DNA of 64,000 nt, taken from the NCBI GenBank assembly GCA_963744145.1, contig CAVUSO010000001.1, positions 352,001 through 416,000 of the forward strand, in the 5' to 3' direction. This document shows, piece by piece, positions 49,292-53,314 of this stretch. Each line of letters opens with the position of its first letter. Within the stretch, counting starts at the first letter, position 1. This DNA comes from an uncultured cyanobacterium. GTDB lineage: Bacteria; Cyanobacteriota; Cyanobacteriia; Cyanobacteriales; CAWUOF01. The notes under the pieces are model-generated. The model saw only the letters and a program-made list of their open reading frames with translations, was not told the DNA's origin and ran no database searches. The position numbers and the translations under genes are program-made.

Positions 49292-50266
49292 CTAGATTAT
49301 TGAACTAGCAGTTTCTCTTAGCCGCTCTACATCGCGCATCGGTGGCGCACCAAAAAGCCGCTTGTACTCGCGGTTAAAGTGGGAGGCATCTTCATAACCT
49401 ACACGATAGGCAGCACTGGTAGCGTCAAGGTTTTCCCCCAGCATTAGACGACGAGCCTCCTGGAGCCGTAGCTGTTTCTGGAACTGCAAGGGACTCATGG
49501 CAGTGACAGACTTGAAGTGATGGTGAAAGCTAGAGACACTCATTCCTAGCTCTTGGGCGATGCTTTCAATGCGAAGCTGCTGGTTGAAGTCTTTACGCAG
49601 TCGATCGATAGCTCTAGCAATGTGGTGGGTGTAACCACCCAGAACTGCAATATGACGGAGCCGACTACCTTGCTCTCCCATCAGGAGTCGGTAAATGATT
49701 TCTCTTGTGACTAGTGGCATCAGAACCTGAGCTTCGGAGGGCGCGTCCAAAAGCCTAACCAGCCTTAATACAGCATCCAGTAGCAGTGTATTCAATGGAC
49801 TCACATCTATCCCTTTTACATTACTACGGCTTTGTGGTGAGGGATAGCCTGCCTCAACCATGACTGAACCGACCAGGGTGGGGTTGAGATCAAGGCGAAG
49901 ACTAAGGTAAGGTTGATGCTTGGATGCTTCCAGAATTTGGCTGACAATTGGCAGCTCGACCGTAGCAAGTAGATAATGGATCGGGTCGTACTGATAGCGA
50001 TCGTTGCCCAGAAGGATTTCTTTACTGCCTTGAGCAATCACACAAAAGGCAGGGATAGAAACACTATGACAGGATTCCGTAGGCCAAGAGGAACGTTTCA
50101 GGTGTAATCCTTTGAGCGGCTCAATCATCCCATCATCACGAATTGCCTGTGCAATCCGTTCAGCCAGTTCATCTCTGTTGGCTTGCACTCTGACAGCCTC
50201 GCGCTTTGCCTGCTGGTCGTTCATTAAATCCACATTGGACTTTTCACTCGTTTTGGCAGCGTTCAT
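49292..50266 (-). CDS. AraC-family regulator (YqhC-like: AraC_N + HTH)
   Basis: CVIAQGSK, MSPLQFQKQLRLQEARRLM and VGYEDASHFNREYKRLFG motifs; start MNAAKT at 50266. Confidence 0.93.
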   Translation of the reverse strand: MNAAKTSEKSNVDLMNDQQAKREAVRVQANRDELAERIAQAIRDDGMIEPLKGLHLKRSSWPTESCHSVSIPAFCVIAQGSKEILLGNDRYQYDPIHYLLATVELPIVSQILEASKHQPYLSLRLDLNPTLVGSVMVEAGYPSPQSRSNVKGIDVSPLNTLLLDAVLRLVRLLDAPSEAQVLMPLVTREIIYRLLMGEQGSRLRHIAVLGGYTHHIARAIDRLRKDFNQQLRIESIAQELGMSVSSFHHHFKSVTAMSPLQFQKQLRLQEARRLMLGENLDATSAAYRVGYEDASHFNREYKRLFGAPPMRDVERLRETASSII

Positions 50267-50592
50267 AAAAATGCTCGGCAAGTGGGAAACTCAGTTCTTT
50301 AGAACTGGGAGGGAAACGGCTCGTGCGGTTTTAACCGCCGTGGATATTGGAAAGGGAGGTAATTTTACCTCCCTTTCCCTCCCTTGCGGGGTGATGTTCG
50401 CTTCGACCTGTTATCTGAGCTTGTTAAGCTTGTAGCACTGTTTCAGTGACCTTAAAACTGTTTAACTACAAGCGACAGAGCGGGGAACTAGCGTCGCATT
50501 CCGAGGTGTCGTGACTCAGATAACGTCTCCCCGTGGGGTCTGGTCAGTACAGCTCTTTCAGAGCTACAGTCCTAAAGGACTGGGTTACTGAC
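50267..50592 (-). mobile_element. Non-autonomous IS200/IS605-superfamily (IscB/IsrB-type) mini-element with no ORF
   Basis: Minus strand begins GTCAGTAACCCAGTCCTTTAGGACTG; matching subterminal hairpin CAGTTCTAAAGAACTG near the other end; followed by ATGAA. Confidence 0.75.
50380..50592 (-). ncRNA. HEARO / omega-RNA-like scaffold
   Basis: Ordered motifs GTCA..ACCC, TGACCAGAC, ACGTT, GACACCT..GAATGC..CGCTAGTTCC..CTCTGTCG, TTAAACAG..AAGGTCACTGAAACAGTG, AACAGGTCGAAGCGAACATCACC match my recollection of cyanobacterial iscB leaders. Confidence 0.75.
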
Positions 50593-50598
50593 TGCTAA

Positions 50599-50637
50599 GT
50601 TTGCAGGATTGTACAACGATCTTAGACGATCATTCTA
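50599..50637. promoter_or_regulatory. Candidate operator of the YqhC-like AraC regulator
   Basis: TTTGCAGGATTGTACAACGATCTTAGACGATCATTCTA: two imperfect half-sites about 21 bp apart in the divergent promoter. Confidence 0.4.
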
Positions 50638-50801
50638 TCGCTTGCCCTTTGAGATTCTTAGAATGAAGCTAAAGCAATAAAAAATGATTCCAGCTTCACC
50701 CTAGCATTCTGGATTTTTATTCAAGAGAGAAGGCAGTTTTGATTGGGCAAGGGACTCGCCTACTGATCACCAAAATGGCATCAAGCGAAGGAATTAAGAA
50801 C

Positions 50802-51188
50802 ATGGACATCAAAAGAAGTGGCTCACAACCTTCTACCAAAGGACCGGCTGATTATTTTACCGGCACTGTCCGGGTTGACCCCCTATTCGAGGCACAAGAT
50901 CCAGCACGCACGCTCGGTGTCAGTGTCACGTTTGAACCTGGTGCGCGAACTGCATGGCACACCCACCCCTTGGGACAGACCCTGATCGTGACGGCTGGCT
51001 GCGGTCTTGCCCAACGCTGGGGCGGACCGATCGAGCAAATTCGACCGGGGGACGTGATCTGGTTTCCACCAGGTGAGAAGCATTGGCACGGCGCTACGGC
51101 AACCACAGCCATGACGCATATTGCCATTCAGGAACTGCTTGATGGCAAACCCGTGGACTGGATGGAGCAGGTCAGCGACCAACATTAG
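50802..51188 (+). CDS. Cupin domain protein
   Basis: [20 protein letters not shown] and GEKHWHGA motifs; start MDIKRSG. Confidence 0.92.
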
Positions 51189-51220
51189 GCGCAGACAGTA
51201 AACCAATAGAAGCATTATTT

Positions 51221-52279
51221 ATGTACAAAACGAAAGCTTATTCTGCAATCAGTGCCACATCACCATTGTCCTTTACCCAGATCCCACGGCGTGATCCAAC
51301 CGAACAAGATGTTCAGATTGAAATCCTCTTCTGCGGGATCTGTCACTCCGACCTCCATTCAGTGCGTAATGAGTGGAGCAGCATCATGCCCACTGTCTAT
51401 CCGATTGTCCCAGGTCATGAGATCGTAGGTCGTGTCACCAAGGTCGGTTCGGCAGTTACCAAGTACAAGCCCGGTGACCTTGCCGCAGTCGGCTGTATGG
51501 TAGACTCGGACGGCACTTGCCCCCATTGCCAGGCGCATCTTGAACAGTTTTGTTCAAACCTGACCCTCACCTTCAATTCCCCTGACAAACACCTGGTCGG
51601 TGTCACCTACGGTGGTTACTCCGATAGCATCGTTGTCCATGAACGCTTTGTGCTGCGAATTCCCTCCAACCTCAATCTCGCTGGAGCTGCGCCGCTCCTT
51701 TGTGCTGGAATCACCACCTATTCGCCTATGCGTCACTGGGGTGTCACCAAGGGCAAGAAGGTAGGCGTGGTCGGTCTCGGTGGGCTAGGCCACATGGGTG
51801 TGAAGTTCGCCCGTGCGTTCGGAGCCCATGTCGTCGTCTTCACCACCTCGCCCAACAAGACGGAAGACGCGCTTCGCCTCGGTGCTGACGAAGTTGTCGT
51901 CTCCCGCCACACTGACGAAATGCAGAAACATTCTGGCAGCTTCGATTTCATCCTCGACACTGTCTCTGCCCAGCACGACATCAACGCCTATCTCAACCTG
52001 CTCTGTCGTGACGGCAACATCACCCTGGTTGGCGCACCTGAGAAGCCCCTGGATGTTGTAGCATTCAGCCTGATCATGGGACGGCGCAGTCTCTCCGGCT
52101 CGATCATCGGCGGCATTGCTGAAACCCAGGAGATGCTTGACTTTTGCAGCAAGCACAATATCACCGCAGATGTCGAAGTCATTCCCATCCAGAAGGTGAA
52201 CGAAGCCTATGAGCGACTGCTCAAGTCCGATGTGAAGTACCGCTTCTGTATCGATATGGAATCACTTAAATCTGAATAA
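51221..52279 (+). CDS. NADP-dependent zinc alcohol dehydrogenase (CAD/YahK-like)
   Basis: CGICHSDLH, GHEIVG, APLLCAGITTYSP and GLGGLGHM motifs. Confidence 0.95.
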   Translation: MYKTKAYSAISATSPLSFTQIPRRDPTEQDVQIEILFCGICHSDLHSVRNEWSSIMPTVYPIVPGHEIVGRVTKVGSAVTKYKPGDLAAVGCMVDSDGTCPHCQAHLEQFCSNLTLTFNSPDKHLVGVTYGGYSDSIVVHERFVLRIPSNLNLAGAAPLLCAGITTYSPMRHWGVTKGKKVGVVGLGGLGHMGVKFARAFGAHVVVFTTSPNKTEDALRLGADEVVVSRHTDEMQKHSGSFDFILDTVSAQHDINAYLNLLCRDGNITLVGAPEKPLDVVAFSLIMGRRSLSGSIIGGIAETQEMLDFCSKHNITADVEVIPIQKVNEAYERLLKSDVKYRFCIDMESLKSE

Positions 52280-52288
52280 CTAAGGTAG

Positions 52289-53314
<1,026 letters not shown>

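Follow-up and report, generated by a model that had tools for sequence, protein, structure and literature searches.

What is a 326-bp sequence with no protein gene doing directly before the start codon of an araC-family regulator gene in an uncultured cyanobacterium, and could it still be moved or serve an RNA-guided nuclease? The window in which it lies is the whole stretch of 64,000 nucleotides that we analysed. Our answer is that the sequence is very probably a non-autonomous, protein-less, PATE-like derivative of an IscB-type IS200/IS605 ("ISC") transposon, which has kept its ends and its omega-RNA and has lost iscB. The features on which the argument turns are listed here by window position (G019 and G032 are related genomes, X3 is a public DNA run, h2 is another copy in the same genome, and a slash marks a junction).

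50593..50612, minus strand: host flank and presumed guide donor, ACAATCCTGCAAACTTAGCA, which the empty alleles of G019, G032 and X3 share; a guide length of 16-20 nt is assumed
50391..50592, minus strand: HEARO / IscB omega-RNA scaffold and transposon end RE (the term of Meers et al.), opening with 5'-GTCAG; Rfam RF02033
50567..50584, unstranded: subterminal palindrome at the omega-RNA end, presumed TnpA hairpin, related to that at the other end
50349..50378, unstranded: perfect hairpin with a 14-bp stem where iscB would begin, unique to the window copy
50267..50348, minus strand: terminal repeat (LE in TnpA terms), 82 nt, also found in IS605-type TnpA+TnpB copies, in TnpB-only copies and in the h2 IscB element
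50292..50309, unstranded: LE subterminal palindrome, related to 50567..50584
50263..50266, minus strand: ATGA, the insertion target and presumed IscB TAM, its ATG being the araC start; empty sites read TTAGAA/ATGAAC
49292..50266, minus strand: AraC-family regulator gene (324 aa; AraC_N and HTH_18 in Pfam), intact, co-oriented with the element and downstream of it
50739..53314, plus strand: divergent run of a cupin (mandelonitrile-lyase family), a Zn-dependent alcohol/aldehyde reductase and an aldo-keto reductase (Pfam, NCBIfam)

Identity and extent of the element

The Rfam covariance model RF02033 (HEARO) matches the minus strand at 50391-50592 over its entire length (model positions 1-211 of 211), with 134.5 bits against a gathering score of 83 and an E-value of 7.4e-29. 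Nothing else in the 64-kb window reached the gathering level of any Rfam family, and a search of 14 control genomes with RF02033 gave no hits. The element as a whole occupies 50267-50592 on the minus strand: the scaffold opens with GTCAG at 50592, the final base is a T at 50267, and ATGAAC follows directly at 50266-50261. These boundaries are fixed by three empty alleles (see below) and by the points at which sister copies diverge. Position 1 of the HEARO model falls on 50592, i.e. on the transposon end, and the empty alleles stop at the base equivalent to 50593. Since the start of the scaffold coincides exactly with the end of the transposon, the guide would be supplied by the flanking DNA.

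Terminal inverted repeats were not found; the ends of the element instead bear related subterminal palindromes (50292-50309 and 50567-50584, 78% identical in direct register). The internal hairpin at 50349-50378 consists of two 14-nt arms that are 100% complementary. Among open reading frames of at least 40 aa, the only one that touches the element is 50112-50435 on the plus strand (107 aa), which is mostly antisense to araC; with a best Pfam E-value of 0.044 and no credible family, it was rejected as a real gene. No iscB frame (RRXRR plus HNH) is present in 50267-50390, and a PF14239 search of the genome had no match at the locus. We call this HEARO copy an "orphan" because no iscB frame lies downstream of its scaffold. 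The original prediction had described a 326-bp, ORF-less, minus-strand element with related hairpins at both ends, a HEARO-like scaffold, an internal hairpin at 50349-50378 and the araC start ATGAAC right behind it, and that description is correct nearly to the base.

When the element is compared with the whole genome by BLAST it splits into three parts: 50592-50379 resembles h2, 50378-50349 is the unique hairpin, and 50348-50262 is a multi-copy repeat. The element is composite in origin, yet it moved as a single unit. The hairpin in the middle, which at E-values below 1e-3 has solely its own inverted match in the genome, is probably a deletion junction or filler. That the 3' part of the scaffold is complete is suggested only by its homology to h2, which reaches 50379; the Rfam HEARO model is said to miss 3' elements of the full omega-RNA (Meers, 10.1101/2023.03.14.532601). 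The 373-nt transcript is predicted to fold strongly (z = -6.0), and none of 100 shuffled sequences folds as well. As a separate observation, the G-rich tail past the scaffold (GGGAGGGAAAGGG, 50371-50383, at the position of the iscB ribosome site) shows 92% complementarity to CCGTTTCCCTCCC (50307-50319) within the terminal repeat, a pairing that is possibly a long-range contact in the transcript or a trace of a deletion.

Empty sites and the araC start codon

We compared the araC-element-cupin stretch with 41 genomes, the window's own included. Two of them, G019 (araC 84% identical over 962 nt) and G032 (80% over 965 nt), have a syntenic cupin-araC locus that lacks the 326 bp. In both genomes the match breaks at the base equivalent to 50595/50593 and restarts at 50266; the aligned junction of G019 reads ...GTACAATCCTGCAAACTTAGAA/ATGAACGCTGCC, and that of G032 is identical. 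A contig from the public DNA run X3 carries the same empty allele, joining 50266 to 50595 so that 328 bases are skipped and two other letters stand in their place. The empty site ...CAAACTTAGAA/ATGAACGCT is therefore shared by G019, G032 and X3, and ...TTAGAA/ATGAAC in the empty state corresponds to ...TTAGCA, 326 bp and then ATGAAC in the occupied state. At the level of sequence, the comparison of these empty alleles with the occupied junction shows that the 326 bp were inserted precisely and without target duplication, immediately 5' of ATGA, that is, 3' of TCAT on the opposite strand. Insertion 3' of such a tetranucleotide is the mode of IS200/IS605 elements.

The expectation that the empty site would be the guide followed by ATGAA holds for the junction itself, which is ACAATCCTGCAAACTTAGAA plus ATGAAC, and fails at one base, where the empty alleles have A for C at 50594. 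This position, two bases from the scaffold, is C in the window and A in all three aligned empty alleles, and the C is probably a lineage SNP. An excision joint in the window genome would still match the guide, so that the substitution is irrelevant to the model presented below.

In G019 and in G032 the cupin-araC intergenic region and the 5' part of araC occur twice, about 8-9 kb apart, whereas the window genome has them once. The copies lie at about 140105-140591 and 148533-149685 in G019:C9, and at about 63826-64299 and 72358-73521 in G032:C30. The second copies display the same 2-base gap, as judged from search coordinates, the alignments having covered the first copies.

Among the public runs, only X1 (DNA) contains the locus at 100% identity, in pieces that break at repeats; X1 may be the source sample, in which case it adds nothing independent. 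The RNA runs X2 and X4 yielded diverged pieces only, namely contigs that cover the shared end, to which X4 adds HEARO-like contigs with 8-15 differences. Since these pieces are diverged and come from other organisms, they do not show transcription of the window's locus. In the X4 metatranscriptome the HEARO-like contigs over window positions 50421-50526 have 6-10 differences per 40-80 nt and a word depth of up to about 115, with DNA carry-over possible.

That the ATG of the target is truly the araC start codon is indicated by the protein. Homologues of the AraC protein, which bear the names of Nostoc and other cyanobacteria, match it with 86-88% identity and 99-100% coverage, and among the best 120 of them the commonest N-terminus is MNAA (65), followed by MNAV (11). 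Two other start codons were considered and rejected: at the second ATG (codon 15) several homologues have I, T or V as residue 15, and the TTG at 50281 is part of the insert. Given the conserved start, the variable residue 15 and the position of that TTG, the target ATGA comprises the araC start codon and the first base of codon 2. As far as the sequence tells, the araC reading frame is untouched and the element forms the final 326 nt before the start codon.

Related elements and possible partners in trans

The genome contains 14 HEARO copies of at least 80 bits and one partial copy (h15), and the window copy (h1) has the highest score of the 15. They fall into subfamilies A (h1, h2 and the partial h15), B (h3, h4 and h6-h14) and C (h5). 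The closest relative of the window scaffold is h2 (83.6% identity over 214 nt), and its layout is that of a full-length parent: flank, HEARO, a frameshifted iscB, the same terminal repeat (79.7% identical) and then ATGA, the ribosome site and ATG of iscB being found where the 50349-50378 hairpin aligns. This layout makes the window element an IscB-type IS200/IS605 element minus iscB. The frameshift in the h2 gene lies near residue 50, and the two frames of this gene are 100% and 85% identical to the IscB protein of h5; the iscB genes of h7 and h8 are broken as well.

Searching the genome for sister copies, iscB and tnpA, as had been proposed along with the original prediction, thus turned up h2 and h15 as sisters, as well as four intact iscB genes and five identical, intact tnpA genes. 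The intact IscB proteins (424, 424, 424 and 437 aa) all have RRXRR and HNH, their genes adjoin the HEARO copies h4, h5, h6 and h9, and the IscB of h5 scores 443.9 bits on the NCBIfam model guided_IscB. With four intact genes present, provision of IscB in trans is possible. The omega-RNAs beside them are only 41-45% identical to that of the window, so that these IscBs may or may not accept the window omega-RNA.

A side observation concerns h2 (L002, G000:C1:1712892-1716093) and h5 (L005, G000:C1:4091281-4094516), whose proteins are 85-100% identical and whose HEARO RNAs are only about 43% identical. In their DNA, homology does not set in before the final ~15 nt of the scaffold, and it looks like a module of omega-RNA and transposon end was swapped between elements.

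The terminal repeat (50348-50262, ~86 nt) is 92-95% identical to five copies elsewhere (88-89 nt aligned). The five 92% copies each end one of five identical elements with a Y1 transposase (PF01797) and, on the opposite strand, a TnpB (PF01385, OrfB_IS605); that the five are identical indicates that they were recently active. Of 17 Y1_Tnp matches in the genome, these five identical ones have an intact 149-aa frame beside the shared repeat. When 13 repeat copies are aligned, similarity reaches as far as TATGA in 12 copies and TGTGA in one, so the end is followed by ATGA in 12/13 and by GTGA in 1/13. The other end of the TnpA+TnpB copies has a hairpin similar to that of the window element but a different sequence. 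Since the TnpA-bearing copies differ at the end opposite the shared repeat, mobilisation by that particular TnpA is something that we infer.

The window copy is not alone in lacking a gene, and at least six other gene-less HEARO elements are present in the genome. Five of them, h10-h14 (G000:C1 at 6261045, 3491582, 5858739, 2283624 and 3192842, respectively), are subfamily B elements of ~410-480 bp that combine the scaffold with the 3'-terminal 45 nt of the complete IscB elements h4, h6 and h9, and their end motif is a different one (…GGTGATC[C/T]GA…). Another, h15 (G000:C1:1707025-1707330, ~7 kb from h2), is a decayed subfamily A mini-element in which only the first ~92 nt of scaffold survive and an unrelated stretch leads to the shared end and ATGA. 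The genome G007 has an element of the same build, 350 bp long, with a HEARO match of 134.6 bits, a spacer, the same end and then GTGA; as a start-codon insertion it was rejected, since about 180 nt separate it from the start of the next gene. Of the 41 genomes, counting the window's own, 21 have HEARO matches, as many as 35 in a single genome. On these findings, elements with an omega-RNA and no gene are ordinary in this group.

Guide, mobilisation and competing explanations

The presumed guide is peculiar to this copy: the flank 50593-50612 is unique in the genome, and in h2, in h15 and in the G007 mini-element the flank diverges completely upstream of GTCAG. Seven genomic sites match its last 16 nt with at most two mismatches, and none of the seven is followed by ATGA. 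In the occupied site the guide sequence is followed by GTCA and not by ATGA, and the site should therefore escape the element's own guide. With positions 50612/50608-50593 as the guide and ATGA as the TAM, nothing but the empty site itself would be a matching target in the genome. That ATGA is a reported IscB TAM, as had been claimed, agrees with the literature, where it is in print for ISC targets (PMC4810608), and DtIsrB is described as favouring NTGA/TTGA TAMs and also cleaving targets with an ATGA TAM (PMC9581776).

The combination of features is familiar from systems already described. Cyanobacterial ISC transposons, such as ISC1-1_MA of Microcystis aeruginosa, are reported by Kapitonov, Makarova & Koonin (2016, PMC4810608) to have 5'-GTCA termini, subterminal hairpins and duplication-free insertion at N/ATGA. 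Their 3' end and target are common to IS605 elements with an antisense TnpB, and Y1 transposases are thought to mobilise them in trans (PMC4810608). The window element resembles them in all of these respects, expected mobilisation included, but the ISC copies described there measure 1.3-1.7 kb, whereas it has 326 bp and no iscB. According to Meers et al. (10.1101/2023.03.14.532601), IscB omega-RNAs are bounded by the RE, TnpA excision is scarless, and TnpB or IscB cuts the donor joint (guide plus TAM), after which recombination restores the element. The same work describes PATEs, short protein-less IS200/IS605 elements that often encode omega-RNAs needing a nuclease in trans. Like them, the window element is minimal, with both ends, no protein gene and an omega-RNA that would need such a nuclease; unlike the Geobacillus examples given there, whose RNAs are used by TnpB, its RNA is of the IscB (HEARO) type and its AraC homologues are of cyanobacterial type (10.1101/2023.03.14.532601). 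Standalone omega-RNAs that function with IscB have also been reported (Altae-Tran et al. 2021, as cited in PMC9581776 and in the commentary PMC11610941). The window copy shares with these the lack of an adjacent IscB gene and the presence of IscB elsewhere in the genome, and adds to them both ends and an empty site, that is, a whole mini-transposon, although one known from sequence alone (compare PMC9581776). Relative to RF02033 itself there is no difference at the RNA level, the copy being full-length and the family multi-copy; what is missing beside it is the HNH ORF implied by the family name. The element is thus one more ISC-derived, PATE-like mini-transposon of an already described kind, and not a new kind of system.

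From these precedents and the copies in the genome, a working cycle can be proposed. A Y1 TnpA from the five identical IS605-type copies, which share a 92% identical end, would move the element as single-stranded DNA. The guide lies outside the element, so its transcription would have to come from the araC side, and transcription entering from there would give an RNA with the host flank (the guide) at its 5' end, fused to the scaffold. An IscB encoded elsewhere would load this RNA and cut the scarless empty site (guide plus ATGA) left behind by excision, and recombination after the cut would restore the element. The occupied site would be spared, having GTCA after the guide sequence.

Several other explanations have to be weighed against this one. 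One may ask whether the 326 bp are an ancestral araC leader that relatives lost, rather than an insertion, which had been named as one of three findings that would overturn the original prediction; the other two, lack of a HEARO hit and a junction other than guide plus ATGAA, did not come about either, apart from the single substitution. The loci of G019, G032 and X3 lack the 326 bp, the absence is base-exact at the ends of a repeat family with other copies in the genome, and each half of the element is represented by independent sister copies at other loci; we found no support for an ancestral leader, and this explanation, already refuted, retains practically no probability. A different question is whether the insertion has been co-opted, so that the 326-nt leader or an IscB-omega-RNA complex controls araC and thereby the divergent cupin/reductase genes, which are presumed, from gene order, to form the AraC regulon. 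What speaks for it is position, as the insert sits between the araC upstream region and its start codon in the same orientation, together with the strongly structured transcript and the intact araC frame. On the other hand, a simple scan of 50150-50850 found no promoter-like and no terminator-like sites, so that start and end positions of the RNA cannot be stated, and no operator was identified in it either. Moreover, the guide's own site lacks ATGA, no regulatory theme unites the other insertions of the family at start codons or between genes, and the absence of the insertion from the araC loci of G019, G032 and X3 gives no sign of conservation. We therefore regard co-option as very improbable. 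The same scan bears on two earlier suggestions: with neither operator nor promoter identified, the overlap of the guide with an AraC operator is conjecture, and the idea that the element silences or rewires a detox regulon found no support.

A more serious contender is that this is indeed such an element but an inert relic, its omega-RNA no longer loaded and its ends no longer mobilised, tolerated since the araC frame is intact. The cognate-type IscB, that of h2, is frameshifted, the intact IscBs belong with other omega-RNA subfamilies (the 41-45% RNA identity noted above), no promoter was detected in 50150-50850, and the sister h15 has lost half of its scaffold, showing that decay does occur in this genome. 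Against this, the window copy matches the whole model with the best score among the 15 HEARO copies, it shares an end at 92-95% identity with five identical, and hence recently active, IS605 copies, and the intact IscB of h5 is 85-100% identical to the product of the h2 pseudogene. Taken together, we consider an inert relic possible, though somewhat unlikely, and keep the reading as an ISC-derived mini-transposon with potential partners in trans.

The location at a start codon may also say something about the family. The shared end was recovered in 20 BLAST rows, two of them without the end motif, and in 6 of the remaining 18 copies the motif that follows serves as the start codon for a real gene in the same orientation: lepA (603 aa; G000:C1 5302213, minus), a Kelch-repeat gene (469 aa; 5660320, plus), a cobW-family GTPase gene (376 aa, GTG; 7310947, minus), folK (167 aa, GTG; 6250010, plus), a 153-aa ORF (1713015, minus) and araC (window 50266, minus). 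Pfam domains are present in four of the five genes other than araC, and in three of these (lepA, cobW family and folK) the domain starts within 25 residues. As a random control, 10.1% of 40,000 ATGA sites open at least 150 codons, which gives a binomial P of ~0.007, a value to be read with the facts that the 150-codon threshold was chosen post hoc, that the null ignores selection against intragenic insertions and that it uses ATGA sites only. It is conceivable, although distinctly doubtful, that this ATGA/GTGA-targeting family persists preferentially at start codons, in sense orientation to the host gene.

If true, such homing would, for IscB-type members, solve the problem of an external guide without a promoter, since the 5' leader of the host gene would transcribe guide and scaffold, and the last bases of the element would become a new translation-initiation context while the host ORF remains whole. 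With an ATG in the TAM, elements of this kind can land on a start codon and leave the gene unbroken. The value of the locus lies in offering a clean test system, in which a complete omega-RNA is carried by a 326-bp element with documented empty sites, and intact IscB, TnpB and TnpA genes, from elements with the same end and target, are present in the same genome. There one could examine the use of omega-RNA by IscB in trans, ATGA as a TAM, and the ability of a single TnpA to move IscB-type, TnpB-type and protein-less elements.
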